From Alphaproteobacteria bacterium (GTDB taxonomy: Bacteria; Pseudomonadota; Alphaproteobacteria; UBA828), in contig CBDCCI010000001.1 in NCBI GenBank assembly GCA_965214705.1, positions 1-64,000 on the forward strand: a DNA stretch of 64,000 nucleotides. The letters run 5' to 3'. Positions 12,938 to 37,270 of the stretch are shown piece after piece. The notes beneath the pieces were generated by a model. That model was not told where the DNA came from. It saw nothing but the letters and a program-made list of their open reading frames with translations, and searched no databases. Position numbers and translations under genes: made by a program. Each line of letters opens with the position of its first letter. Within the stretch, counting starts at the first letter, position 1.

Positions 12938-14005
12938 CAGGCCGCAAGCCCTCCGTGTAGGTCGAGCAGCATCCGGCTGACACGATGCCAGCGGAAGTTC
13001 ATCCGCCCGACTCCGACCCGTCCGCTCCAATCGAGGAGACGAGCGGGGTTGTGAAGCCTCGCCCGCGACCCCTTGAGCTGTTGTTCCCGATTCTCGATCA
13101 AATCACGCAGTGTGGGATCGTCTGCGATCGCAGTCGGCCCGACTTCGGGAAGGCGCGTCGACCAGGCCTCGACGAATGGGCGCTGCAAACGGGGAACATG
13201 GACGTGGCGGGATCGGGCGAAGGTCCAAAGTCTGGCCGGATCGAATGACTCCTCATCGGCTTCCTGAGCCGCCCATTCGTCGATTTCCTGCCTGTACCGT
13301 TCGACCGCTTCGTCGTCGCCGCCATGTTCGGAAAGGAATCGCTCGGCCAGTAACAGATTGTAGAGCAGCGGCATGCCCTCAACGTGGAGAGAGAAACGGC
13401 GGGCGAGTTCTATCGTGACCGTGAAATCAGCATGGGCGTGCGTCGCGGCGCTGTCATCCCAGAAGCAGCCGTCCGACCTCGCATCCGATCCCTCTCGAGC
13501 CATCCATGCGAGCAGCGAGCCTGCACAGCGCTCCTCCAGCCGTCCCTGAAGAAAGGCCGCCTCCTCTCGAGTCAGGTCGAAGGAAGCCTCATGGGGAAAC
13601 TCCGGCGGGGGAGCGGGCAACCGGGGATGCCAGTTCGGCTGGCGGGTCTGGACAATGCCCGGGTCGTCCGCGGTTTCCTGCGCGCCGCCGCTGCGCAGGA
13701 GGCCCGTAAAGTGGGTGTGGTACCAGCCTTGGGGCCGCTCATGCAGAAACAGGCCCCAGCGGACGAGCGCGGTCCAGTAGACCGAGCTGGGCTGCCGGGC
13801 CAGCGATCCGCGCGCGCGTTCGCCGATCACACCCTGGGATTTGCCGTTCTTGAGGAGCGGCCCAATAAGGTCGAGTTCGGCCTTCCGCAGCTGCGTTGAA
13901 ACGTCGGAGGCGGTGGTTCTCCAAGCTTCAAGCTGACGGTATATCCACGGAACGAACAGCACGTAACGCAATCGCGTCTGGATCGTAGAGGTTCCGGGAA
14001 AGGTT

Positions 14006-14047
14006 AAGGGTTGGGCAGGCTCTCTCTCGAGAGCCTGCCCAACCCTT
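14006..14047. repeat. Perfect 19-bp stem, 4-nt loop hairpin at the element end
   Basis: AAGGGTTGGGCAGGCTCTC-TCTC-GAGAGCCTGCCCAACCCTT; also at 60054-60095. Confidence 0.95.
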
Positions 14048-14309
14048 TTGAACGAAGCCGCGGGCCACGAGAGGCGAAGTTGAGCTATGTGGAAAGTGCG
14101 CTGATGTCAGCGTCAGGCGGCATCCACCGGCAGCAGAGTTGCGCATAAAATCGACGCTCGCGCCGGTCTTTCGGCAGGCATGCGGGCGCACGCTGCGAGG
14201 ACTGAGCGGGGTGTGAGCCGAGGGCTGTCAGCCCGGCTCAAGCGGAGACAGGTTCGGTCGTGCGTCGGCGCTTTGGCGCCGTTGCGCGGGGCCGAAGCGA
14301 GCGGCCGTC

Positions 14310-15548
14310 TCACGGTTTCCCCCTGTGGGTCGGCGGCAGCGCCGGCGGGCCGCGCGTCGAGCGGGGCTCATGGCGGCGGCGGATTTCGCGGACGAGGCGC
14401 ATGACGCCGCCGCAGTGGGGGCAGGCCACGGGCGCGGTGCCGATCTCGGGCTCTTCGTCGGGCTCGGCCTGAGCGCCGTCCACGCTTCCCTCGGGGGCGG
14501 CGCAGCCGAGGGCGCCGAGAGCCTGGCGTGCTCTCTCCAGCGTGCTGGCGCGGCAGCCGTTGGCGAGGATGCCGAAGTAGCGAATGCGGTGCATGCCGTC
14601 CGGCAGGACGTGCCTCAGGAAGCGGCGGATGAACTCGTCGGCGCTCACGGTGGCGATGCCGTAGCGCGGCTTTCTCTGCCCCGGCGCCTTGGGCTTTCGG
14701 TGGCGGAAGGAGACCGTCTCGCCGTCGAAGGAGACGATGCGGCTGTCGGAGATGGCGATCCTGTGCGTGTAGTGCGAGAGGTACCGGAAGACCTGCTCAG
14801 GCCCGCGGAAGGGCCGCTTGGCGTAGACCACCCAGTCCCTGGCCCGGGCGGCGGCAAGCGTGGCGTGGAACTCGCCGGGATTGGCGAGGTGGGCGAGGGT
14901 GCCGTGGAACTCCAGGTCCCCCCGGCCGTGGGCGCGGGCGAGCTCCTTGAGGAAGAGGCGGCGGAACAGGCTGCCGAGGACCTTGACGGGGGCGAGGAAG
15001 GTGGTGCTCCCCGTCTTCCACTCGCCACTGTCTACGTCGAAGCCCGCGTTGGGCACGACCACGTGCAGGTGCGGGTGGAAGCGGAGCTTCTGATCCCAGG
15101 TATGGAGGACCGCGGTGCCGCCGATGCGCATGCCGCCGTGGCGGGGATCGGCGGCGATGGTGCGCAGGGTCTCGGCGACGGCCCGGAAGAGGATGTCGAA
15201 CACCACCCTGCGGTTGCAGAAGGCAATGGCGGCAACCTCCTTGGGCAGGGTGAAGACCACATGGAAGTAGGGCACCGGCAGGATGTCCCCGGCGCGCTCC
15301 TCGCTCCAGAGGTTGGCGGCGAGACCCTGGCAGGTGGGGCAGTGGCGGTTGCGGCAGGAGAAGAGCGGATGCTCGCGCCCGCAGCCCTCGCAGGCGTACA
15401 TGTGGCCGCCGAGCACGGCGGTGCGGCACGCCTCGATGGCGCCCATGACCTTGAGCCGGGCGGCGTCGATGCGCCCTTTGTGGCGCTCACGGAAAGCGGC
15501 GCCGGCGCGGCGGAAGATCTCCGCCACGCCCGCGCGTTCGGCCTCCAC
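14310..15548 (-). CDS. IS91-like rolling-circle transposase (Zn-binding + Y2_Tnp)
   Basis: CRT...CEGC...SCRNRHCPTC, HVVFTLP, LHTW...HPHLH (HUH), YLSHY (YxxxY). Confidence 0.92.
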   Translation of the reverse strand: MEAERAGVAEIFRRAGAAFRERHKGRIDAARLKVMGAIEACRTAVLGGHMYACEGCGREHPLFSCRNRHCPTCQGLAANLWSEERAGDILPVPYFHVVFTLPKEVAAIAFCNRRVVFDILFRAVAETLRTIAADPRHGGMRIGGTAVLHTWDQKLRFHPHLHVVVPNAGFDVDSGEWKTGSTTFLAPVKVLGSLFRRLFLKELARAHGRGDLEFHGTLAHLANPGEFHATLAAARARDWVVYAKRPFRGPEQVFRYLSHYTHRIAISDSRIVSFDGETVSFRHRKPKAPGQRKPRYGIATVSADEFIRRFLRHVLPDGMHRIRYFGILANGCRASTLERARQALGALGCAAPEGSVDGAQAEPDEEPEIGTAPVACPHCGGVMRLVREIRRRHEPRSTRGPPALPPTHRGKP

Positions 15549-15554
15549 GCGCCG

Positions 15555-16433
15555 TCAGTTGCGCAACGCTGCGAAGCCTGAGATCGGGTGGTCGAGGCCC
15601 TCGAACATCTTGCCGGTGACGCGGGCGTAGTGACGGGTCGTGTTCGCGCTTCGATGGCCGAGCATGTCCCGGATCACCTCGATATCGCCGCCGCGCTCGA
15701 GGAGATGGGTCGCCGCCGAATGGCGCAGGCAATGGAAGGTGTAGCTGCGGTCGAGCTCGGCAATGTCGCGCGCCCTCCTGAAGGCGGCCTGCAAGGTCTC
15801 CGTTGCGATGGGCCTGTCGAGCGAGACGCCGTAGAAGAGCCAGCTCGTCGGACGCGGCCAGATGTTCCTGTAGTAGACGCGCAAGTAGTGGATGACGATG
15901 TCCGGCAACGGTGCCATTCTCTCGGTGCCGCCTTTGCCGGAGGGGATGTGCAGCAGCTTCTTCTCCGACAGGATGTCGCCGACCTTGATGGCCAAGGTCT
16001 CGGAGATGCGGAGCCCGCCGCCATAGCCGGTGACAATGGCAGCACGGTGGCGGAGGTCGGGTGTCGCAAGGATGAGGTGCTCGACCTCCTGCTCCGACAT
16101 GTAGCGCGGCAGCTTGCCGGGCTTCTTGCGGGAGCGCAGGCCGGCGACATGGTCAGGCCAGCCGAGTGTGTCGATGTAGAGGAAGTTCAGCGCGGCGAAG
16201 GAGACGTTGGTCGTGCCCGGACTGAGCCCCTTGTCGATCCGCCCCAGGTACCACTGGCGCACCTGCTCGGCGTCGAGCTCGTCCGGCGAGGCGTCGTAGT
16301 ACCTGGCCAGGTTCTTGATCTCGCAGATGTAGGCCTTGGACGTGCTCGCGGCCAGATTGGCGATGCGGAGCTGCTCCTCCATGCGCTGGCGAAGAGGGGT
16401 GACGGTGTTCGTGTCGCACGCGGTCCCGGTCAT
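15555..16433 (-). CDS. Tyrosine recombinase (XerD/IntI-like)
   Basis: GLRISE, GKGG, HCLRHSAATHLLE, LGH, TTRHY: full catalytic set. Confidence 0.92.
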   Translation of the reverse strand: MTGTACDTNTVTPLRQRMEEQLRIANLAASTSKAYICEIKNLARYYDASPDELDAEQVRQWYLGRIDKGLSPGTTNVSFAALNFLYIDTLGWPDHVAGLRSRKKPGKLPRYMSEQEVEHLILATPDLRHRAAIVTGYGGGLRISETLAIKVGDILSEKKLLHIPSGKGGTERMAPLPDIVIHYLRVYYRNIWPRPTSWLFYGVSLDRPIATETLQAAFRRARDIAELDRSYTFHCLRHSAATHLLERGGDIEVIRDMLGHRSANTTRHYARVTGKMFEGLDHPISGFAALRN

Positions 16434-16931
16434 TATCGATCTCCCTGGATCGCGACGGCGCGCCGCCGGACCGATCCGGCGACGGTCCGTCGCAGGGGTC
16501 GATGCTAACCACTGGTGATCGGGAGGCTGCTGGGGATCCGCCACCCGACGGGCGGAGCGCCACTGACGCAACCGGGAAGCGAACGCACAGAACAAACGGC
16601 ACCCGCGACGCCTCGGAAATGAATGAACTCTACGCCGCTAACTCCGCGTAGCGGCTTCGTTCAAGAGAGCTTCGGAGAGCGCGTCGCGCAGACTGCCGAG
16701 GCCCATCTCGTCGACGGTTCCCTGTTCATTGAAGAGATCCAAGACCTGCCGCATCCTGTCCCGGTCGCTCGCCGTCAAGTCGAGCCAAGTCAGTGTTGCG
16801 CCCATGCCCCTCTATCCGCCAAAGTGAAGGTGAGATGTGGTTCGTTGATGAAGTGATCGAAGTGTAGCTGTCACATATTGAGCATGCGCGCTTCCGGGGG
16901 CAATGTTTCACGCCCGATTACACCTACACCT

Positions 16932-21061: not shown

Positions 21062-21508
21062 ATGAAGAACTTCGGCCGCCTGTTCAATTGCGCGCACTGC
21101 GGGCAACAGGTTGTTCTTTGCCCGCGCTGCGACCACGGCAACCTCTACTGCTCACCGGGCTGTAGCGAGACGGCGCGCAGGCGCTCGGTTCGCCGTGCCG
21201 GGCGGCTCTATCAGGACAGCCACCGGGGGCGCCTCAAGCACGCGCGGCGCCAGCAGCGCTATCGAGAACGCCGTCTCGGCCAGGCCCCGGAACATGAGGG
21301 CTGCGGGCAGAAAGTGACGCATCACCCTTCGACGCGCGCGCACCGCCGTGTTGTCGTGACCCAGACGCCGAGGAGGCGTCGCGGAGCACGGCCCTTGGGG
21401 CACGAGCGGCCCGCCGGGGCCTTCCGCTGCGATCGCTGCGGCCGGTTTTGCGCCCGGTTCGTCTATCCGGGCCTGCGCCCGGTCCGGCATCCGGCGCGAG
21501 AGGGGTAG
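21062..21508 (+). CDS. IS21-associated Zn-finger protein
   Basis: CAHC...CPRC...YCSPGC and C-terminal CDRC; directly upstream of istA. Confidence 0.7.
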
Positions 21509-21510
21509 GG

Positions 21511-22209
21511 ATGGCTATCGACAAGAAGACCCGCGCGGAGATCCTGCGCCTCTATCACGTCGAGAAGTGGAAGATCGGCACGATCGCGCGGCAGCTCGGC
21601 GTGCATCGCTACACCGTCGAGCGGGCGCTCACCGACGCGGGCGAGCCTGGGCGCGCGATCTCGCCGAGGCCGTCGATGATCGATCCCTACGTGCCGTTCA
21701 TCGTCCAGACGCTGACGTCCTGGCCGACGCTGCCGGCCAGCCGTCTCTACCAGATGGTGCGCGAACGCGGCTATCCGGGCGGTTCCGACCACTTCCGTCA
21801 TCTGGTCGCTCCGTTCAGGCCCAAGCCTGTGGCCGAGGCCTATCTGCGCCTGAAGACGCTTCCCGGCGAGCAGGCCCAGGTCGATTGGGGACACTTCGGC
21901 AAGGTGAAGATAGGCCGCGCCGAGCGTCCGCTGATGGGCTTCGTGATGGTTCTCAGCTTCTCGCGGCGCATCTTCCTGCGCTTCTACCTCAACGCTGCGA
22001 TGAGCAACTTCCTGCGCGGCCATATCGACGCCTTCGAGGCGTGGCAGGGGGTGCCTCGCGAGCTCTGGTACGACAATCTGAAGAGCGTCGTGCTGGAGCG
22101 CCGCGGCGACGCGATCCGCTTCAATCCGCAGTTCCTCGACTTCGCCGCCCACTACCGTTTCCTGCCGCAGCCCGTCGCGATCGCGCGCGGCAACGAAAAG
22201 GGCTACGCT
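21511..22209 (+). pseudogene. istA: IS21 transposase IstA, truncated just before the third catalytic residue
   Basis: [16 protein letters not shown], and GNEKG followed by foreign sequence. Confidence 0.88.
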
Positions 22210-22260
22210 TCATATTGCACCTCATTAGTCGGTTGGCACACGATGTTGGGGTTGAGCGCT

Positions 22261-24282
22261 CTATACGCGCTTTCGGCCTTGTTGCTTGGTCGGCGGGTTG
22301 TCGGGCATTTCATAGAGATAGCTGCCCTTGTCGTTGTAGACGTGTCCGCTCAGCAGCCCGATCTCGCGCCACTTCTTGATCGTCGTGGTCGAGACCGCGA
22401 GCCTGGTGGCCATTTCGTCGACGGTCAACAAGCCGCGGGCGCGCAGTCGGTCGTAGCGTGATTTAAGCTTGTAGTCGCCGCGGATTGCCTGCACGCGCAG
22501 CGCTCGAAAGGGGGCGCCATAGCCAGTCCGGCATCCCCGTTCATTGAGGATCGTTGCGATCTCGGCGTCGGTGTGATCGTCGAGTAGCTCGTCGATCTGG
22601 GCAATGACCTCGGGCGGGGTCTTGTAACGCTGCCACGCCGGCGCCTCGGGCTCGATGACGAGCTGGCGGGTGGCTCCGCCTCGAAGGCGCACTCCCAGGC
22701 GGAGATCCTTGCCCTTGACCAGGGTCACGTCCTCGATCAGCAATCGCGCGATCCGCTTGCGCTCGCGGTACGGCGTTGCAGGGTCGTTCCACAAGCGCGG
22801 AAAGTCCGTCGCCAGCGCGAGGACTCGTTGGCGTTGCTGCTCCCCGAGCTCGTGGCTCTGCTCGGCGCGGCGATGATCGAGATCGCGCTGTGCCTCGTCC
22901 AGAGCACGAAGCTTGGCGTTCCATTCCGCCTCCAGCACGTCGGCCACCATGCGGTTCTCGGGATGGGTTTGCATGAAGCGCTGGCGCGCCAGATCAGCCT
23001 CTTCGCGGGCGCGCTGCACCTGCTGGGCACGCCAGGCGTCGACCTCTTCAGCACGCGCGGAAAGTTCGGCGTGTACCTCCAATGCCACTTGCAGCGCGAC
23101 CGGCGTCATCAACTCGACCAGCAGTTCGCCGATTGCCCGGTCGATACCGGCACCGGCGATTTGCTGGCATATCCGGCTCGCCGTATCGATGCCTTCCCGC
23201 TGGCACATGTAGTCCGGCACCTGCCGCCCCCGGCGGGTGTGGTAGCGCACGGTCATGCGGTCGCCGCAAACCCCGCAGAGGGCCAGGCCCTGGAGCAGCG
23301 CCGGCCCTTCGCGTGGAGCGCTGCGCCGGGGCACGCCATAGGCCTGAGCGTTGTCCCGGAGCTGGCGCTGATTGGCCTCGAAGCGCTCCCAGGAGATATA
23401 GCCCGGGTGCGCGTCGGGGAGCAGCACGGTCCATTCCTCGCGCGCGAGCCGCTTCACTTCAACACCGCCACCGGGACGCCGACGGTGGCAGTGGCGCCCG
23501 AACGCGAAGGCGCCGGCGTATCGTGGGTTGTGCAGCACCTCCAGCACCCGATAGAGCTTGAGCGGCTGCCAATGCAGCTCACCCTTGTGCGGTCCGCTGC
23601 GCGGCCGGCGGGGAAAGAGCAGTCCTTCGTCACGGAAGTGCTTCACCGTGGCGCAGGCCGTGCCGGTGCGGGTGAAGGTGTCGAAGAGCAGCCTGAGGCT
23701 GTGTTGAACCTGCGCATCGGGATCGAGAACCACACGATCGAGCGGGTCGTACACCAGCCCCAGTGGCAGCGGCATCTTCAACTCGCCGCGTTTGGCTCGA
23801 TTGAGGATTCCGCCGCGCAGCCGGGCGCGCAGCAAATGGAGCTCCGCCTCCGACATCGTCCCTTTCAGCCCGAGCAGGAGCCTATCGTTGAAGTCGCCGG
23901 GATCGTAGACGCCGTCTTCATCGAGGATCAGCGTCTCGCTCAGGGCGCAGATCTCGACCAGCCGGCACCACTCGGTGGAGTTGCGCGCGAGCCTGGACAC
24001 CTCGAGGCCGAGCACGATCCCGGCCCGACCCATGCCGACCTCGGCAACCAGATGCTTGAAGCCCTCACGGTCTCTGTCGGCGCCGGATAGCCCCTGATCG
24101 CTATCGATCACGACGATGCTCTCGGTCGGCCAGCCCAGAGCGACGGCCCGTTCGCGCAGGGCGTACTGGCGGAGCGTGCTCTCGCCATTCTCGTACACCT
24201 GGCGCGGGGTGGACTGACGCACGTACAGATAGGCATGGCGGCTCAGGTGGCTCGTGCTCACCTTCTGATGGGCAGTACTCAT
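22261..24282 (-). CDS. Large serine recombinase (resolvase + recombinase + Zn ribbon + HTH)
   Basis: [34 protein letters not shown]; the usual EVQYEA tail lies in another frame (probable late frameshift). Confidence 0.92.
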
Positions 24283-24572
24283 GCCAACTCCCCTTCCATG
24301 TGGACTTTGACCATCGCGAGAAGAATGTCGATCACCGGCCTCTCGACCCTGGCGGGCAGTGCCTTGGGCGACGCGCCCGCGCACACGCCGGCAGGCGCGG
24401 CGGGCAGCTCGGCGGACACGAACAGCCAGGCGGCGATGCCGCGCCGTACCATCACGGCGAGCCCCTGTCGGTCGAGCGGCGTGCCGGGCTCGAGCGCGTG
24501 GCGGCGCATCTGCTCGTAGCCCTGCGCATACGCCGAATGCGTCAACGGAAGCGCCAGCGGTGTCGGCGTCAT
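24279..24572 (-). CDS. Small hypothetical protein of the recombinase element
   Basis: ATGA overlaps on both sides; YEQMRRHAL...GLAVMVRRGIAAW. Confidence 0.7.
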   Translation of the reverse strand: MTPTPLALPLTHSAYAQGYEQMRRHALEPGTPLDRQGLAVMVRRGIAAWLFVSAELPAAPAGVCAGASPKALPARVERPVIDILLAMVKVHMEGELA

Positions 24573-25030
24573 GCGCGTTTTTTTCCCCGCGCGAGCGCGC
24601 GTTCGATGCTGCGGCGATGGACCCGCAGGCCGAAGCGCTCGCGCACGAGGTCGACCAGCTCGCGGGTGCTGAGTTCCGGCTGTTCGCTCTTTGCCGCGCG
24701 CAACGCCTCGACCACTTCGTCGCTGAGCTTGTGGGCTCGCCGGGGGCCGCGCCGGTGCGGCAACAGCGCCGGCAGGCCGCCTGCCTCGAAGGCGAGCTGT
24801 GCCTGGTACCAGGTGGGCCGCGAGACGCCGAAGCTCGCAGCGGCACGGCTGATGGGCACGCCGTCTTCGCGCACACGGCGCAGCATCTCGTACTTGACCT
24901 GGAGCAGGTCGCGCGGATCGAAGAATGCGTTGGACAGGAACAGCTCGTCGCGAACCGCGTCGGGACGCGGGTTCAGACAGCCATGCTGCTTGAGGGCATC
25001 GGTCTTTGCATCGGCTGAACGTCTGGCCAT
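24569..25030 (-). CDS. HTH protein of the recombinase element
   Basis: FFDPRDLLQVKYEMLR...AAASFGVSRPTWY...GLPALLPHRRGP. Confidence 0.8.
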   Translation of the reverse strand: MARRSADAKTDALKQHGCLNPRPDAVRDELFLSNAFFDPRDLLQVKYEMLRRVREDGVPISRAAASFGVSRPTWYQAQLAFEAGGLPALLPHRRGPRRAHKLSDEVVEALRAAKSEQPELSTRELVDLVRERFGLRVHRRSIERALARGKKRA

Positions 25031-25211
25031 GGGGTGGCCTCCATCTGCAACGAATGTAAGGAATATTATGCCGCAATCATATGCGGTGTCAAGCTGGTCC
25101 TGCCTCAGTTCTTCTCGTGATCTGAAGAATCTGTATGAACAACGCCCGATATAGACAAGACAGTTTGCCGGAAAGGGGAAGGGCGCTCCAACGCATTGGG
25201 CAAAATATATC

Positions 25212-25565
25212 TTACACATGCGGCGTAATACTCTTTACAGTGCCGCTGCCACCGCCAGCGCTACTCCCAAACAAACCATCCTCGTGCAGGCCATCCAACA
25301 GTGCAGCCAGAGCCAGCAGATCCGGAAGCCGAAAGGCCGAGCGACCAGACGCGACGATGACGAAGGGATCCTTGGCCCCAGCACTGGTCCACGCCGCTGT
25401 GAGGGAACGCACCACCCCGTCCCCGTCGACGTAATCCACCCGTTCTATCCCCCGGCACACCCGGCTCTGAAGAAGCTCGAACTCCCGTCCGTGGAGGGGA
25501 TGAAACGGGTGCGTCACCCGAAAGGTTCGACCCTCATGCTGTGGATCGAGTGCAGTTGAATGCTT
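25212..25565 (-). CDS. DUF5372 (Y4bD/Y4pK-like) protein with no ATG start inside the integrated element
   Basis: VTHPFHPLHGREF...WT...DPFV...GRSAFRLPDLLAL. Confidence 0.7.
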   Translation of the reverse strand, partial: KHSTALDPQHEGRTFRVTHPFHPLHGREFELLQSRVCRGIERVDYVDGDGVVRSLTAAWTSAGAKDPFVIVASGRSAFRLPDLLALAALLDGLHEDGLFGSSAGGGSGTVKSITPHV

Positions 25566-26839
25566 GGTCCAAGGAGAACCCCAACCAGCGATTCCATGCG
25601 CTAATCGACAAGGTGTGGAGGGCGGATTTCTTGATGGAAGCCTGGGCACAAGTGCGCCGTAATGGCGGCTCTGCCGGGGTAGACGGAGAGACCGTCAAGA
25701 GCGTCGAGTCGTATGGCGTAGACCGCTGGCTCGGGGAACTGGCGAGGGATCTGCAGGACGGGACCTACAAGCCAAGTGCGGTGAGACAGGTTCTAATCCC
25801 GAAGAAACAGCCTGGTAAGTTCCGGCCGTTGGGCATCCCTTGTATCAGGGACCGGGTGGCCCAGACGTCAGCCATGCTTGTGCTGACGCCAATCTTTGAG
25901 GCCGATCTACAACCCGAGCAGTACGCCTACAGACCGGAACGGAGCGCACATGACGCAGTAAGAAGTGTGCATCGCCTCCTGAATAGGGGACACAACGAAG
26001 TTGTGGATTGCGATTTGTCCAACTACTTCGGCGAGATTCCCCATGCCGAGCTAATGAAGAGCCTTGCCCGGCGCATCAGCGACGGGCGGATGTTAGCGCT
26101 CATCAAGGCGTGGTTGGAAATGCCTGTCGAAGAGGACGACGGTAAGGGCGGAAAACGCCGCACGAATCGGGCACGGAAGGAGCGGAAAGGGACCCCTCAG
26201 GGCTCTCCGATCTCGCCCCTGTTGAGTAACGTTTACATGCGGCGCTTCGTACTGGGCTGGAAAACGCTGGGCCACGCCCAGCGCTTCTGCGCGGAAATCG
26301 TGGTCTATGCGGACGACCTATGTGTGCTCGGCAAGGCACCGGCGGCGGAAATGCTGACGGTGACCGAACAGCTCATGGACGGTCTGAAGCTGACGGTCAA
26401 CACGCAGAAAACCCGATGCTTGCGGTGCCCGGAGGAGTCGTTCGAGTTTCTGGGCTACCGCATCGGACGCAGCTATCGACCCCACGGAAAGGGGGCTTAC
26501 ATCGGCACCCGGCCCAGCAAGGCGAGCGTCCAAAGCATATGCCGCAAGATCAGCGAGATGACAGCGCGACGGCATGGCGGGAAGTCGATGGAAGAAATGG
26601 TGGAGGGCCTGAACCGCACCTTGAGCGGGTGGGCCAACTACTTCAGCCTCGGCCAAGTCAGCCCGGCCTACGACGCGGTCAATCGCCACACGGGAAAGCG
26701 GCTACGCCAGTGGCTCGGTCGAAAGCACCAGACGCGGGTAGGGAGATACGTGCGATACTCCGAGGAAAGGCTGAGCGTTGACTACGGCCTCCTGCGCCTC
26801 ACGCGACAAACCGTGCCCATTCCGAGCGCGAAGGCATGA
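25562..26839 (+). CDS. ltrA: Group II intron reverse transcriptase/maturase without endonuclease domain; extreme N-terminus lost
   Basis: RPLGIPCIRDRVAQ, GTPQGSPISPLLSN, YADD, FLGY, GWANYF. Confidence 0.9.
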   Translation, partial: AWSKENPNQRFHALIDKVWRADFLMEAWAQVRRNGGSAGVDGETVKSVESYGVDRWLGELARDLQDGTYKPSAVRQVLIPKKQPGKFRPLGIPCIRDRVAQTSAMLVLTPIFEADLQPEQYAYRPERSAHDAVRSVHRLLNRGHNEVVDCDLSNYFGEIPHAELMKSLARRISDGRMLALIKAWLEMPVEEDDGKGGKRRTNRARKERKGTPQGSPISPLLSNVYMRRFVLGWKTLGHAQRFCAEIVVYADDLCVLGKAPAAEMLTVTEQLMDGLKLTVNTQKTRCLRCPEESFEFLGYRIGRSYRPHGKGAYIGTRPSKASVQSICRKISEMTARRHGGKSMEEMVEGLNRTLSGWANYFSLGQVSPAYDAVNRHTGKRLRQWLGRKHQTRVGRYVRYSEERLSVDYGLLRLTRQTVPIPSAKA

Positions 26840-32944: not shown

Positions 32945-34162
32945 TCAGGGCCCCGCCCGATGCCGGGCAGCCTCAACCGCCTCGCGGCATCTGTAAAGAT
33001 CCTCCCCGATGCTGGCCGCGACCTTGGCCGCCGACCCCTTGACGGAATCCCGTGCCAGGTGCGCATACCGCGCGGTGGTCTCGACCTGCGTGTGGCCAAG
33101 CAGCCTGCCGATCATCGGCAGGCTCTCGCCCAGCGCGAGCGCCCTGCTGGCCCAGGAATGACGCAGGTCATGAAGCCGCACGTCCTCCAGCCCAGCGCGG
33201 CGGCGGATGACATCCCAGGACTGGTTGAGGTTGCGCAGGTGCGTGCGGCGCTTCTTGCCCACGATCACCCAGGGATTGTCCGCAACGCGCGGCAGATCGG
33301 ACAGAAGCCTTGCCGCAGCCGGCGACAGCGGCACCGCCCGCGGACCCGTCTTCGAGTCGGCGAGGTGCAAGACCTTCGCCTCAAGGTCCACATCGCTCCA
33401 GCGCAGACCCAGTATCTCGCTGCGCCGGCACCCCGTCAGCATCAGCAGGCGCAGCGCGGCCACCGCGTACTTCGACGCGCCCCCCTCGTCGGCTGCGTCT
33501 GCGAGCACGCGGCCAAGGCGCCGGAACTCCTCCTCGGTCAGAAACCGCTCGTGCTTGCGGGTCCTGTACTTCGGAAACGAGCGGCACGGATTGGTCCCCT
33601 CCGGCACCAGCTCCCACGCCTCCGCACGATTGAACATGCGGGAGAGAACCGCAACCACGTGGTTCGCCGTGGCCGGTCGGTCGCGCAGCCGGAAGTGAAG
33701 ATCGGCCACCTGCTTGCGCTCGACGGCCTCTATGGGAACGTCGCCCAGCGCGGGAAGGATGTGGTTCTTCAGCATCAGGCGGCACAGCTCCACAGTCCTC
33801 GGCTTGCACCGGACAGCCACGTGCTCCGTCAGGTAGCGCTCCGCCAGCGCTGCAACCGTCGGACCCTCCGGCCTGGGCGCTTCGGGATTCCTGGGGCTCA
33901 CCTCCTCTCCCGCCTTGATGCGCGTGATCATCTGCGCCGCCCGCTGGCGTGCCTGCTCGGCCGTCAGCACCCCGTGCCGGCCCACCGTGACCCGCCTCGA
34001 CTTCCCCTTCGCGCGGGCCTGAACGATGTACACCTTCTTGCCCGACGCATAGGCCCGCACCCCGAAGCCCGAAAGCTCCCGGTCCCAGAAGATCGTGTCC
34101 TTATCGACCTCCAGTCCCTCCACCATGCGCTTCGAGATCGATCTGTGGTGCAGCTTAGCCAT
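32945..34162 (-). CDS. Tyrosine integrase with arm-binding (DUF4102-like) domain
   Basis: FWDRELSGFGVR, TGCRRSEI, LHDLRHS, LGH...TTARY. Confidence 0.92.
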   Translation of the reverse strand: MAKLHHRSISKRMVEGLEVDKDTIFWDRELSGFGVRAYASGKKVYIVQARAKGKSRRVTVGRHGVLTAEQARQRAAQMITRIKAGEEVSPRNPEAPRPEGPTVAALAERYLTEHVAVRCKPRTVELCRLMLKNHILPALGDVPIEAVERKQVADLHFRLRDRPATANHVVAVLSRMFNRAEAWELVPEGTNPCRSFPKYRTRKHERFLTEEEFRRLGRVLADAADEGGASKYAVAALRLLMLTGCRRSEILGLRWSDVDLEAKVLHLADSKTGPRAVPLSPAAARLLSDLPRVADNPWVIVGKKRRTHLRNLNQSWDVIRRRAGLEDVRLHDLRHSWASRALALGESLPMIGRLLGHTQVETTARYAHLARDSVKGSAAKVAASIGEDLYRCREAVEAARHRAGP

Positions 34163-34201
34163 GACGCGCGATCTCCTCGGTTGTACCCGGTCCTCCGCGC
34201 A

Positions 34202-35392
34202 TCATGCCGCCTCCGCGTCCGGAACCATGATGTCGGCCTCGATGCTGTCCGCCACCCTGGCCGCAGACACCTTCTCCGTGTCCTGCGCGAGATGAGCGTA
34301 GCGCGCCGTCGTCTGCACCTGCGTGTGGCCGAGCTGCCTGCCGATCATCGGCAGGCTCTCGCCCAGCGCCAGCGCCCTGCTGGCCCAGCTATGTCGAAGG
34401 TCGTGGAGGCGCACGTCCTTCAGGTCGGCCCGTACCCGCAGCCGATACCAGAGCTCGTTGACGTTCCTCAGGTGATTCCCCGACCTTTTCCCCGCGATCA
34501 CCCACGGACTGCCGGGCATCCGCGGGATCGCGTCCAGCACCGCCGCCGCCGTGGGCGTCAGCGGCACCATCCGCCCTCCCGTTTTCGCGTCCCTGAGGCG
34601 CAACTCGCCGGCGGTCCGGTCGACGTCGTCCCATCGTAGCGACAGGATCTCGTTGCGCCGGCAGCCGGTCAGGATCAACAAGCGGATCGCGGCAATGGCG
34701 GGGGGCCAGGCCGTGCCCTCTGCCTCCATCTCGTCCAGGACCCGGCCCAGGCGCTGGTACTCCTCGGCGCTCAGGAACCGCTGCGGCTTGCGCTCCTTGT
34801 ACTTGCGCACAGACCGGCACGGGTTCCGCCCCTGCGGGTGAAGGCCCCACACCTCGGCCAGGGAATACATCTTCTTCAGAATGTCGACCGACCTGTTCGC
34901 CGAGCTCGGCCGGTCACGCAGCGCGTAGTGCAGGTTCGCCACGTGCGTGCGCTCGACCGAGCCGATCGGCATGGAGCCCAGGACGGGCAGGATGCAGTTC
35001 CTGAGAAGCCCGTCATAGCGCACCGCCGTCGCAGGCTTGCAGTTCACCGCCACATGCGCGCGCATGAAGCGGTCGGCAAGGTCGGCTACGGTCGGCCCCT
35101 TCTCCTTCTCGGGCTCAGCCGGCAGCGGCTCCTGCCCGGTCTTGATCCTGTCGATGATCCCGGCGGCGCGCTTGCGCGCCTGCTCTGCGGTGATCTTCCC
35201 GTGCCGGCCCAGCGTGACCCGCCTGGAGCCTCCCGGCCCCCGGCTCTGCACCACGTAGACCTTGCGGCCGGAGGGGTAGACGCGCACCCCGAAGCCGGAC
35301 AGGTCGCGGTCCCAGAAGATGGCGTCCCGATCCTCGACGAAAAGGGCATCGACGGTCCGTTTGGAGATTGTGCGCTCCCGACACTGTGACAT
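34202..35392 (-). CDS. Tyrosine integrase, tandem paralog
   Basis: Same motifs: FWDRDLSGFGVR, TGCRRNEI, LHDLRHS, TTARY. Confidence 0.92.
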   Translation of the reverse strand: MSQCRERTISKRTVDALFVEDRDAIFWDRDLSGFGVRVYPSGRKVYVVQSRGPGGSRRVTLGRHGKITAEQARKRAAGIIDRIKTGQEPLPAEPEKEKGPTVADLADRFMRAHVAVNCKPATAVRYDGLLRNCILPVLGSMPIGSVERTHVANLHYALRDRPSSANRSVDILKKMYSLAEVWGLHPQGRNPCRSVRKYKERKPQRFLSAEEYQRLGRVLDEMEAEGTAWPPAIAAIRLLILTGCRRNEILSLRWDDVDRTAGELRLRDAKTGGRMVPLTPTAAAVLDAIPRMPGSPWVIAGKRSGNHLRNVNELWYRLRVRADLKDVRLHDLRHSWASRALALGESLPMIGRQLGHTQVQTTARYAHLAQDTEKVSAARVADSIEADIMVPDAEAA

Positions 35393-36248
35393 AAAATCCC
35401 CACCCCGTTGACCACCGCGAGAGGGCGTTCGATCATGAAATGGCGATGGTCAGGCAGGCTGTGGCGCCCCATATGAGCTGTGCCGCTCGGGCCTGCGCCC
35501 GGGACCTCGATCCCGCCATCGCCGCGTGGCCGAACGCCTCGATCACGCCTGGAGAGGGTACACGATCCCGTAAGCGCCACGCAAGCAAGCGATGTCAAAC
35601 TCCCGCGTAGGCCTGCGTACAATAGTCGCAAAATCGATACGGAAGCTACGGGGAGGGGCGGACGATCAGTGTATAGAATCAGCTATTTGTCGTAGCCAAG
35701 CGTAGGAATGTCGCATGAACGAAGCGCTTCCCCATGCGGCGCGCTTCCTTTCATGCTTCTATCCTCCTCCTCGCGAGATTGTTCTGTCCCATGCATGGTC
35801 CGCGGCGGTGCGCCTCTCACCGAACGCAACCTGCCGCAAGCTGGATGGTACACGATGCGCGCTCCCACGCGACTGGAATCATGACAGAAATCTGTCAAAC
35901 GATCGTTTTTCCCTCACCCCGTGGCAAAAATATCACATCGAGTCGCTCCCGCAGCCCGTCTATCGGCTGATTCACCCCGGCTACCCGACTAAAGCCTTGA
36001 CCGCTTGCCACGAGTTGCCCCTCGCGCCGTGAGATGCACCCAGCAGGCCGTACTCACGCCTTCGGATGGTGCAAGTCGGATCGTGGCGGGTAGGCAATCG
36101 CCAATCCTGTACGCTCATACGCGCTCCGATTTGACTCCAATTGCTTTCTTAGTGCTTACGGAAATTCTTATTCAGCTTCAAGAGGGAAATAATTATCAAA
36201 TATTATCAGTTACTTAACGAAGAATCTTTCAGATAACAATTCCGAAGC

Positions 36249-37270
36249 ATGAGAAGGTATTGTTAGGAACTACGGCACTCGCGGCTGTTGGCCTGCTGGC
36301 CAGCAATGTCGCGTCTGCCGATGAGATGATGGCCGAGCCGATCAGCGTCGGCGTGGGCGGCTATTACACCATTGCCGCCATCGCCTATGACGAAGACGAT
36401 GCCATGAATGATCGCGGTCATGGCATCAACCAGAACATGGAGATGCAGATCGCCGGCTCGTCCACCCTTGACAACGGCATCACTGTCGGCGTCAGGGTCC
36501 GCTTCTCCGCCAACGACTACGAGCACAGCGACGAGCAGGAAGTCACCTTTAGCGGCGGCTTCGGCTCCCTGCACGTCGGCGCAATCGAGGGCGCCGCGCA
36601 GCAGACGGTCATCTGGGCGCCAGGCAACAGCGTGCCGATCGGCGGCATCAAGTCGCCCTGGTTCGGCGGGATCGGCGGCATGTGGAATACGGGCGCAGGT
36701 CCACTTGGCCTCATGGACGAGGATGCGCTCAAGGTCGTCTACTTCTCGCCGAGCTTCAACGGCATCTCTTTTGCCGCGAGCTACGCGCCTGAGGATAACA
36801 CTAATTCTTACGGAACTGATTTTGACGGTGGACGGAGTACTGACGACGACGCGAATGAGGAGCAGGTAGCGGTTGCCCTCAGCTACACGGTCGACGTCAT
36901 GGGCGGCAGCTTCAGCGCCAACGTCGGTTACGAGTCCTATACTAGTAACTTGGGCGCCACCGATCCCGAGGGCTTGCGCTACGGAGCCTTGATCAGTATC
37001 GACCAGATCGCACTCGGCGGCGCCGTGTACGATAAAGATGTAGGCGGCGTCACGACTTCGTATTCCGATATCGGCGTGTCCTGGACCGACGGTCCCATGA
37101 TGCTGGGTGTTCAGTACGGCGACAACGAGTCCAACAACAGCAACATCGTGGCCTTCAATGCCAACTACAATCTCGGACCGGGAATCGATCTCGGGCTGCA
37201 GATCGGCGCGGGCGAGAGTGGCGCGAACGACTTCACTCAGCTCCTTCTGGGGACGATGCTCAACTTCTAA
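36249..37270 (+). CDS. Alphaproteobacterial porin (probable 1-nt indel after the ATG)
   Basis: LLGTTAL signal, TLDNGITVG, YFSPSFNG, terminal Phe; ATG 36249 is one base out of frame with (K)VLLGTT. Confidence 0.85.

Follow-up and report, generated by a model that had tools for sequence, protein, structure and literature searches.

Does the excision of a mobile element complete one of its own genes? This question is raised by a cluster of four genes in the window, the 64,000-nt stretch of an alphaproteobacterial contig analysed here. An earlier note had proposed that a DUF5372 gene in this cluster lacks its start in the integrated element and acquires it when a serine recombinase joins the element ends in a circle. 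The element ends, the geometry of the attachment site, the reading frame, the start signals and the operon order were established by sequence comparison. The earlier observation was confirmed in part: its core holds, while the element ends and the crossover core had been misplaced. The interpretation of an excision-completed gene is supported. The features of the locus are as follows.

21448..22199, plus strand: left flank, 5' part of an istA transposase gene of the IS21 family, interrupted after ...N-E-K(G)
22198..22199, no strand: crossover dinucleotide at the recombinase end, AA (TT on the coding strand), where homology to the C3 copy ends; centre of the 44-bp site
22199..22220, minus strand: P' half of attP, 22 bp, with the arm GTGCAAT at 22214-22220
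22211..22213, minus strand: ATG start of the split DUF5372 gene (CAT on the plus strand); 4 further codons precede the crossover
22220..22223, minus strand: SD-like GAGG, 6 nt ahead of the ATG
22261..24282, minus strand: large serine recombinase (LSR), 673 aa, assigned by Pfam domains and carrying an additional HTH domain at its C-terminus
24279..24572, minus strand: 97-aa ORF of no Pfam family, overlapping its neighbour at either end by 4 nt
24569..25030, minus strand: HTH_32/HTH_29 protein, 153 aa (Pfam HTH_32, 42.9 bits), like a transposase N-terminus
25063..25092, minus strand: sigma-70-like promoter TTGACA-16-CATAAT (11/12), between the DUF5372 stop and the HTH start
25212..25571, minus strand: DUF5372 gene body, 119 codons and a stop, own start absent; residues 45-121 of the listed ORF match PF17342
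25515..25517, minus strand: GTG (Val), chosen as the start by gene callers; across the family it behaves as a normal Val codon
25550..25571, minus strand: P half of attP, 22 bp, its arm reading S-T-A in the DUF5372 frame
25571..25572, no strand: crossover dinucleotide at the DUF5372 end, AA, placed by the C3 copy, the flank dinucleotides and the branch points of run contigs
25573..26839, plus strand: right flank, group II intron reverse transcriptase/maturase gene (TIGR04416, 336 bits), 5' end absent

Ends of the element and geometry of its attachment site

Contig C3 carries an identical copy of the element between other flanks, and its comparison with the window, in which a shared AAGG marks the limit of homology, places the ends 9 bp outside GCTT on each side. 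The GCTT repeats previously taken for the ends are present at 22207-22210 and 25562-25565 and lie inside the element. The same right end is given by unitigs that branch exactly at 25571/25572 in the public runs X1 and X3. Because of the symmetry of the 44-bp site, the crossover is assigned to the AA at 22198-22199 and 25571-25572; the GTGCA/TGCAC arms described earlier are real, and the centre between them is this AA rather than GC. So delimited, the locus is an intact copy of a cargo-less LSR element of 3,373 bp, whose 44-bp attP with GTGCA-type arms is a short imperfect inverted repeat with a central 2-bp crossover and no target duplication beyond the core, as in attP sites of the LSR type.

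Both flanks are genes broken by the insertion, and the missing part of each flanks the C3 copy. The istA fragment matches NCBIfam transpos_IS21 with 192 bits (cut-off 160) over profile positions 1-228 of 294. Its 3' remainder was found beside the C3 copy, and the rejoined halves align without gaps, over 300/300 columns, to four uninterrupted IS21-like copies. The N-terminal codons absent from the reverse transcriptase/maturase gene were found there as well. The source genome holds no exact empty istA or reverse transcriptase site; the istA site is spanned in it only by intact IS21-like copies, 88.7% identical, and the reverse transcriptase site has no spanning copy.

Of 43 distinct insertions, drawn from many phyla, 39 have flank dinucleotides that agree at a site length of 44 bp with halves of 22+22, and none of the alternative arm-to-arm lengths from 34 to 54 gives an agreement above 0.28; this agreement exceeds chance. 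Two of the four misses (L049 and L063) fit, by eye, once the arm is shifted in frame by 3 or 6 nt, and the other two (L037 and L039) are copies of a single element with unmatched flanks. The P' arm is kept in 52 of 57 scanned loci and, by eye, in 3 more; at one locus (L072) it is not recognisable.

The element has spread widely. Two further copies in the same genome, 76-79% identical, have retained arms, ATG and reading frame. One element variant is present in 8 copies with distinct flanks over two MAGs, and several genomes hold the element in multiple copies. The architecture is found in Proteobacteria, Actinomycetota, Acidobacteriota, Planctomycetota, Chloroflexota and other phyla. Its preference for transposase genes as targets suggests a mobile element living on other mobile elements.

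Start signals and reading frame of the split DUF5372 gene

The DUF5372 body matches PF17342 with 77.5 bits (cut-off 25) over profile positions 1-77 of 78, and a search with this profile recovers 2,502 cluster representatives at E<=0.001, of which 1,215 pass E<=1e-10. Because attP sits inside the 5' end of the gene, integration splits the SD-like site, the ATG and the first five codons from the 119-codon body. In the computed joint, the GAGG and the ATG stand in frame with the body, as had been claimed, and open an ORF of 124 codons in which M-K-R-S-P is followed by W-T-K-H-S-T-A. The frame claim survives the relocation of the ends because the omitted 18 bp are six codons, a multiple of three. 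The integrated gene indeed has no ATG of its own, as none is present in frame between the right end and the THPFHP motif in the window element.

The junction frame in homologs, which the earlier note had singled out for checking, is not random. All 43 computed joints are open, with ATG starts in 41 and GTG starts in 2, and 42 have an SD-like site; the geometry from which they were built is verified independently by the flank dinucleotides. Among 33 distinct attP variants, arm positions 8-10 form a start codon on the recombinase side in every one and on the mirror side in none (0/33), and an SD-like site accompanies 32 on the recombinase side vs 10 on the mirror side. In 30 of 57 scanned loci the position of the LSR stop relative to the ATG is -11, -4 or +1 nt, and the two overlap in many relatives. 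At the other end, the DUF5372 frame is open upstream of the Val codon in all 59 distinct right ends (no stops), vs stops in 10 and 42 of the 59 for the other two frames. An in-frame ATG within the element occurs in 3 of these right ends only, and 14 codons ahead of Val the family conserves the residues S, T/N and A/T.

We infer that full DUF5372 is translated solely from the excised circle. The N-termini of DUF5372 proteins in databases vary from 1 to 127 residues before THPFHP; since the gene is split by attP, these annotated N-termini are arbitrary. The circle-form N-terminus (M, 8 residues, S-T-A) is present in none of 120 relatives and 150 profile matches, and its expected length occurs in 1 of 122 motif-bearing family proteins, the sequence of which does not fit. 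By eye, 0 of 80 loci have an arm with ATG ahead of the DUF5372 body. Neither a circle nor a joined attP was seen among the contigs of four public runs (X1, X3, X7 and X8) or the loose ends listed; these contigs say nothing either way on circles, because assembled contigs drop rare forms.

Operon order and a predicted DUF5372-recombinase complex

The four genes are co-oriented on the minus strand, as noted before. The LSR opens with its catalytic domain (residues 17-167), after which come DBD1, the recombinase domain, and DBD2, the zinc ribbon, with Pfam scores of 69.8 bits for Resolvase, 50.3 for Recombinase and 27.2 for Zn_ribbon_recom, all over the cut-offs, and a weak MerR_1/HTH_17 match at 618-657. 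In its AlphaFold model (mean pLDDT 80.4), long helices at 394-438 and 444-475 form a predicted coiled coil (394-475) within DBD2, between zinc-ribbon strands 334-376 and strands 516-543, and extra helices follow at 549-640. IS607-type elements encode a small serine recombinase with the DNA-binding domain N-terminal to the catalytic domain; membership in that family is ruled out by the N-terminal catalytic domain of this 673-aa LSR.

The gene order is conserved. An HTH gene homolog sits between DUF5372 and the LSR in all 59 loci with a complete recombinase, and the LSR is downstream of DUF5372 in 50 of the 51 loci having at least 4.5 kb of sequence there. The 97-aa ORF has no Pfam or NCBIfam match even at E<=5, and homologs of it were recognised in 33 of 59 loci. 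The strong promoter-like site lies within the element, away from the joint, and is the only one found by scanning the linear sequence of the element, where shuffles give a mean of 0.3 sites. Promoter-like sites of at least 9/12 occur in 23 of 61 distinct homologous intergenic regions vs 0 of 57 control segments in the recombinase gene. Because this site is downstream of DUF5372, the order on the circle becomes HTH gene, small ORF, recombinase, DUF5372. RNA structure in the intergenic region is unremarkable (z-score -0.88).

Modelling of DUF5372 with the LSR gave a complex with ipSAE 0.74 in three runs, where the best of 3 controls reached 0.00; this score is the model's own confidence and not a measurement. 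As a rough guide only, with our own alignments used here, solved complexes attain the benchmark mark for the score in 58 of 80 cases and mismatched pairs in 2 of 110. The runs share at least 63% of contacts, with a partner pLDDT of at least 65. The predicted interface comprises LSR residues 335-340, 391-410, 479-497 and 507-538, i.e. DBD2 and the base of the coiled coil, and on the DUF5372 side the conserved family motifs HPFHP, DPF, GRSxFR and DLL. The junction of DBD2 and the coiled coil is also where known directionality factors (RDFs) are predicted to bind (PMC12286644). By these models, DUF5372 most likely docks on the LSR surface used by directionality factors, and a role as such a factor gains in-silico support. 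DUF5372 itself is modelled (pLDDT 79.2) as five strands and a long C-terminal helix; its best matches in the PDB, SH3-like barrels (eS4, NdhS, PsaE, Tudor), were too weak to assign a function (E>=0.047, TM ~0.3).

Proposed mechanism, alternatives and known systems

The best explanation of the whole, to which we give a probability of about 0.7, is a cargo-less LSR element with an attP-split DUF5372 gene whose product, made from the circle, binds the LSR and sets its preferred reaction. In the integrated state, the internal promoter would drive the HTH gene, the small ORF and the LSR, with the startless DUF5372 body left upstream of the promoter and the SD/ATG piece adjoining the LSR stop, 3.3 kb away at the other end. 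In the circle, the transcript would read through attP, so that DUF5372 would close the operon as its fourth gene. Its product would bind the LSR at the DBD2/coiled-coil junction and set the favoured reaction while the element is free. The direction of this effect is our guess: DUF5372 would tip the LSR towards attP x attB integration, for instance by filling the site that an RDF would use, and integration would then turn DUF5372 off again. A wider reading, for which we see somewhat less than even odds when taken as a whole, is that of a self-resetting toggle, in which a direction-setting LSR cofactor gene is assembled by excision and dismantled by integration and each state expresses exactly the proteins needed to exit that state. 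It also takes the element as an IS-like parasite of other mobile elements, one subfamily of which homes to the codons that end the catalytic core of DDE (rve) transposases.

In the phage paradigm, the RDF is required before excision. Our explanation has a factor for the RDF site appear only once excision has taken place; this conflicts with the paradigm and counts against the explanation.

It is unlikely, if a serious alternative, that DUF5372 has the canonical polarity of an ordinary RDF, stimulating attL x attR and inhibiting attP x attB. Once produced by the circle, such a factor would stop re-entry into the vacated site or a sister copy, and integration would have to await a fall in its level or arrival of the circle in a new cell; a first excision would need some leaky initiation at the internal GTG or at start codons of the flank. 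The predicted DUF5372 site is the one assigned to known RDFs (PMC12286644), and the GTG present in 33 of 59 right ends, that of the window included, could give a trickle of a 101-aa form. Yet the 26 elements of the 59 without a usable internal start would have no such supply, and an RDF stoichiometric with the LSR would bar the sole productive fate of a non-replicating circle. The multiple copies in several genomes, such as the 8 of one variant, imply, moreover, that reintegration must be efficient.

That DUF5372 is instead made while integrated, from the internal GTG or chance flank starts, with the far-end SD and ATG irrelevant, appears improbable. Gene callers do pick the GTG, as THPFHP is at index 1 in 67 of 120 listed proteins, and some loci have in-frame ATGs in the flank (e.g. 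L061/P0058). The window Val codon being GTG, a 101-aa product may arise from the integrated copy here, and all predicted LSR-contact residues of DUF5372 fall within this form. However, the internal GTG, use of which as the start the earlier note had named as fatal to its own proposal, fails as a start family-wide: the codon is GTC, GTA, GTT, ATA, ATC or ATT in the remaining 26 right ends, varies at the wobble position only (entropies 0.41/0/1.45), and is preceded by residues (F/V at -2, R at -1) conserved in a coding pattern. In the window, no SD stands at a usable distance before the GTG, the closest GAGG ending 14 nt upstream. Against this alternative are also the position of the body upstream of the only promoter-like site and the far-end start signals, asymmetric and in frame in all the joints.

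Hardly credible is the remaining alternative, that the split gene is a by-product of recombinase-site conservation, with arms that chance to hold an ATG and no stops and a 'coding' signal upstream of Val that reflects the DNA site: the S-T-A codons do overlie the P arm, the ATG does lie inside the P' half-site, and the 10 codons between arm and Val lack codon periodicity (so that this N-terminal stretch is probably a mere linker), but the same protein binds both halves and the start signals mark only one side so consistently, the DUF5372 frame alone is open throughout, the spacing changes in L049 and L063 are multiples of a codon, and the frequent overlap of LSR stop and ATG is that of coupled genes.

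Mobile elements are known to tie expression to their state through promoters. In Tn4451/Tn4453 of clostridia, which encode the large resolvase TnpX, the circle joint reportedly forms a promoter for tnpX. The likeness is that a large serine recombinase excises a circle whose joint alters gene expression; there, promoter halves are joined and the gene is whole, whereas here the start signals and first five codons are joined to the body of an accessory gene, in a cargo-less element whose recombinase gene is intact with its own promoter in both states. Integrases of the SSV1 type have attP inside the element's own recombinase gene. They share an attachment site within a coding sequence, so that integration splits an element gene, but it is the recombinase gene that is split or loses its tail, and here an accessory gene loses its start. 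Circle-specific integrase promoters, in which a far-end signal acts on a near-end gene only once the element is circular, are described for ICEclc (Pcirc) and ICEKp1 (P3'end) (PMC13023037); those elements use tyrosine integrases under transcriptional control with an unsplit coding sequence, in contrast to the split coding sequence here. The RDFs SPbeta SprB, Bxb1 gp47, phiC31 gp3 and that of LI are small, sequence-diverse binders, predicted or shown, of DBD2 at its junction with the coiled coil (PMC12286644). DUF5372 is modelled on the same LSR surface; known RDFs are whole genes that are on before excision, whereas the DUF5372 gene would be assembled by excision and is outside their families.

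What is new in form is an attachment site that cuts a gene off from its ribosome-binding site, start codon and first codons, and such a split start would be a simple, nearly leak-proof sensor of element state. If DUF5372 acts at the directionality surface, the family would offer hundreds of natural recombinase-cofactor pairs with 44-bp sites and built-in on/off logic, of use, if true, in integrase-based genome engineering and genetic memory circuits. The finding also gives a testable function to the uncharacterised DUF5372, with its ~2,500 cluster representatives. A literature search, supplements excluded, found no paper on DUF5372, on its split-gene architecture or on the rhizobial genes y4bA, y4bD and y4pK as part of such elements.

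A resemblance to the y4bA-y4bD genes of rhizobia, suggested earlier, holds for the gene order in pNGR234a and goes no further. On this plasmid of Sinorhizobium fredii NGR234, positions 33989-37258 encode a DUF5372 protein, an HTH protein, a small 'transposase' and a recombinase family protein in the same order, a four-gene cluster that we take to be y4bA-y4bD / y4pH-y4pK. Its DUF5372 part, the only one compared, is 47.7% identical over 54% of the query, and one plasmid match is annotated as 'Y4bD/Y4pK family protein'.

Ends of the element and its copies in the genome

The mobile unit is 3,373 bp long and carries four genes, with the following features:

22198-25572, all four genes on the minus strand: the element, flanked by istA (left) and RT/maturase (right)
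Within the element, minus strand: HTH_32 protein of 153 aa
25063-25092, minus strand: promoter-like site TTGACA-16-CATAAT, a consensus match between the DUF5372 stop and the HTH start
22211-22213, minus strand: ATG at positions 8-10 of the attachment-site arm, with GAGG 6 nt before it

The DUF5372 ORF matches PF17342 at 77.5 bits, the profile beginning at the Val of V-T-H-P-F-H-P. The large serine recombinase (LSR, 673 aa) contains Resolvase, Recombinase and Zn_ribbon_recom domains with a weak HTH at its C-terminus, and the 97-aa ORF gave no family match even at E<=5. An additional helical domain follows DBD2 at LSR residues about 549-657 (22264-22700); it has weak MerR/HTH_17/excisionase-like matches and may act as an in-built module for directionality or DNA bending. 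The same four-gene order is found in pNGR234a, and the likeness to the rhizobial y4bA-y4bD genes drawn in the earlier note is borne out as far as gene order goes.

To the left lies the 5' portion of an IS21 istA gene, and to the right a group II intron RT/maturase gene without its first codons. Several related copies of the element exist in the same genome (3 contigs, 7.9 Mb). On contig C1 the element and both flanks are present at 98-99% identity, on contig C3 (C3:595839-601882) the element is identical and its LSR gene is broken by a 2.67-kb insertion sequence, and two further copies are 76-79% identical. The insertion sequence lies at C3:597854-600523 (the matches overlap by 7 bp) and recurs at 13999-16665; roughly a hundred near-identical copies of it exist in this genome, which is extremely IS-rich overall.

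The element had been described as bounded by GCTT repeats at 22207-25565. These repeats are ruled out as ends by the C3 copy, which has different flanks: at either end, homology between the two copies stops at a common AAGG lying 9 bp beyond the GCTT repeats, which are therefore internal and coincidental. The C3 flanks are reciprocal: the left one carries the 5' codons of RT and the right one the 3' part of istA. When the left flank at 22198 is joined to the right flank of the C3 copy, the resulting istA sequence aligns without gaps over 300/300 columns (88.7%) to four uninterrupted IS21-like copies, and the insertion was thus precise. Contigs from two public sequencing runs branch at exactly 25571 and 25572, with an uninterrupted RT gene along one branch and a different IS21 variant along the other, which places the exchange at the AA dinucleotide. 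No uninterrupted copy spanning the RT site is present in the assembly; run contigs of X1 and X3 do contain one. The flanks look as if an IS21-borne copy and an intron-borne one had undergone reciprocal exchange, by homologous recombination or via the recombinase. The RT gene (25573-26839) also apparently lacks the 5' RNA domains of the intron; we attribute this loss and that of its first codons to flank exchange.

A reading frame divided by the attachment site

With the ends corrected, the computed joint (the attP that excision as a circle would form) has GTGCA arms with outer edges 44 bp apart and a central AA (TT on the coding strand), in place of the central GC proposed earlier. Among the contig ends listed for four public runs (X1, X3, X7, X8), all of them assembled data in which rare forms are lost, neither the joint nor a circle was seen. 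The frame across it reads M-K-R-S-P, the crossover, W-T-K-H-S-T-A, ten further codons and then R-V-T-H-P-F-H-P. The in-frame fusion proposed in the earlier note is therefore right as to frame, but the joint reconstructed there lacked 18 bp, so that its frame was correct by luck. The two diverged copies of the same genome have another core but keep arms, ATG, frame and codon number.

A scan of one genome per species yielded 254 stretches encoding a relative, the best 80 of which were fetched; they come from Alpha-, Gamma- and Deltaproteobacteria, Actinomycetota, Acidobacteriota, Planctomycetota, Chloroflexota, Gemmatimonadota and others. Gene content is constant across these loci: the HTH homolog sits between DUF5372 and LSR in 59/59, the small ORF has a detectable homolog in 33/59, and LSR lies downstream in 50 of the 51 loci having enough sequence. 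Most units are 3.3-3.6 kb long and thus without cargo.

Both ends were available at 47 loci, representing 43 distinct insertions, which are independent as integration events although many come from related elements (33 distinct attP variants). Exchange by a serine recombinase predicts that the dinucleotide at 22-23 from the arm of P' (the recombinase-side half of attP) equals that 23-22 before the arm end of P (the DUF5372-side half). The two dinucleotides match in 39/43 insertions, as compared with an expectation of about 1/16, and no cell for any other arm-to-arm length between 34 and 54 exceeds 0.28. Judged by eye, two of the misses (L049, L063) fit with the P arm moved by 3 or 6 nt, still in frame; the other two (L037, L039) represent a single element whose copies have unmatched flanks, resembling the flank exchange described here. 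The computed joints are open in 43/43, starting with ATG in 41 and GTG in 2, and have an SD-like site in 42; the frame across the junction is not random in homologs.

The start signals were also scanned at 57 loci with a complete recombinase end, including three copies from the same genome. An arm (at least 5/7) is followed by ATG or GTG in 52/57; in L066, L069 and L070 an ATG follows a degenerate arm (by eye), L034 has a GTG one codon later, in frame, and in L072 a P' arm could not be recognised. Across the 33 attP variants, a start codon occupies positions 8-10 on the P' side in 33 and on the P side in none, and 32 variants have an SD-like site beyond the arm on the P' side, as against 10 on the P side. 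Mirror symmetry of the binding site does not explain the start signals. In 30/57 loci the stop codon of LSR falls -11, -4 or +1 nt from the ATG, as it does in translationally coupled genes.

The internal GTG preceding T-H-P-F-H-P is unlikely to be the DUF5372 start. This codon is GTG in 33/59 distinct right ends and GTC, GTA, GTT, ATA, ATC or ATT in the remaining 26/59, its variation being limited to the wobble position (entropies 0.41, 0, 1.45), so that across the family it is an ordinary Val codon. The 18 codons upstream are free of stops in the DUF5372 frame in 59/59, as against stops in 10/59 and 42/59 in the other two frames, and an in-frame ATG occurs within the element in only 3/59. The residues directly before Val (F/V, R) show coding-type conservation; the 8 codons further upstream are variable, with no codon periodicity found. 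Family proteins in the database begin 1 to 127 residues before the motif, as expected if gene callers pick chance starts in the flanks. Two metagenomic relatives (P0056, P0067) have 26 residues ahead of THPFHP and both read R-S-Y at N-terminal positions 4-6. This could point to a common target, or to a subfamily whose joint is longer.

Transcription and predicted role of DUF5372

The site at 25063-25092 is the only strong promoter-like site within 22100-25700, and sites scoring at least 9/12 occur in 23/61 distinct homologous intergenic regions versus 0/57 control segments inside the recombinase gene. It lies downstream of the DUF5372 stop, and hence the body of the integrated gene is upstream of the promoter. 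On the circle the order would become promoter, HTH, small ORF, LSR, attP and DUF5372. In contigs of runs X3 and X7 there are 11 extra bases behind 25144, an intergenic position of the element some 50 nt upstream of the -35 box.

The attachment site of SSV1 lies inside its recombinase gene, and Tn4451 reportedly shows circle-specific expression through a joined promoter. Our literature search, supplementary files aside, found neither the names DUF5372 and y4bD/y4pK nor an LSR element with a start codon split from its gene by attP. Circle-specific expression by way of a joined or relocated promoter is an established phenomenon, with ICEclc and ICEKp1 as examples (PMC13023037).

In the DUF5372 model (pLDDT 79.2) five strands form a barrel and the C-terminus is a long helix; the PDB matches are SH3-like barrels, all weak (E>=0.047). 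The predicted complex with LSR scores 0.74 in all three runs, against 0.00 for the highest of three controls; this mark is reached by 58/80 solved complexes and 2/110 mismatched pairs (approximate counts, own alignments used). At least 63% of contacts agree between runs, and partner pLDDT is at least 65. The contacts predicted on DUF5372 fall in conserved motifs (22-27 and 69-96 in the numbering of the 120-aa query), and those on LSR (residues 335-340, 391-410, 479-497 and 507-538) map in the model to the strands of the zinc ribbon, the bases of the two coiled-coil helices and the latter half of DBD2. No confident contact involves the first 21 residues of DUF5372, to which the stretch encoded across attP belongs, so that on this model the gene split looks regulatory rather than structural.

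The suggestion that DUF5372 is an integration helper or directionality factor agrees with this predicted docking at DBD2 and the coiled-coil base, and its effect could run in either of two directions. The main rival is canonical RDF polarity; known RDFs are predicted to bind LSR at the same place (PMC12286644). A cofactor made only by a non-replicating circle, in step with LSR, would be self-defeating if it blocked integration, and the multi-copy spread of the element shows that reintegration works. We therefore prefer the reading that DUF5372 may favour integration.

Insertion targets

The loci whose flanks were compared are:

TT core, downstream flanks: L023, L027, L028, L036, L049, L052, L057, L061, L081 and positions 22190-22202
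Non-TT core, flanks viewed by eye: L011, L014, L016, L017, L019, L021 and, in the same genome, C1:~1814214-1817761 and C3:~588629-592275

TT-core elements use one fixed point in the DDE transposase genes of several IS families, in antisense orientation and immediately ahead of the codons for N/K-G-x-x-E-R. Among the 10 TT-core flanks scanned, 9 match Pfam rve (5/9 above the curated cut-off), and the matches end at profile position 101-102 of 102, 2-3 residues or less from the break. The istA site is such an rve-type target, and the RT site looks like a secondary one. The element apparently lives on other mobile elements. By eye, CG-core elements are located in paralogous Cys-rich genes with repeated CxxC, and TG-core elements, including the two diverged copies of the same genome, at the 3' end of tyrosine-recombinase-like genes.
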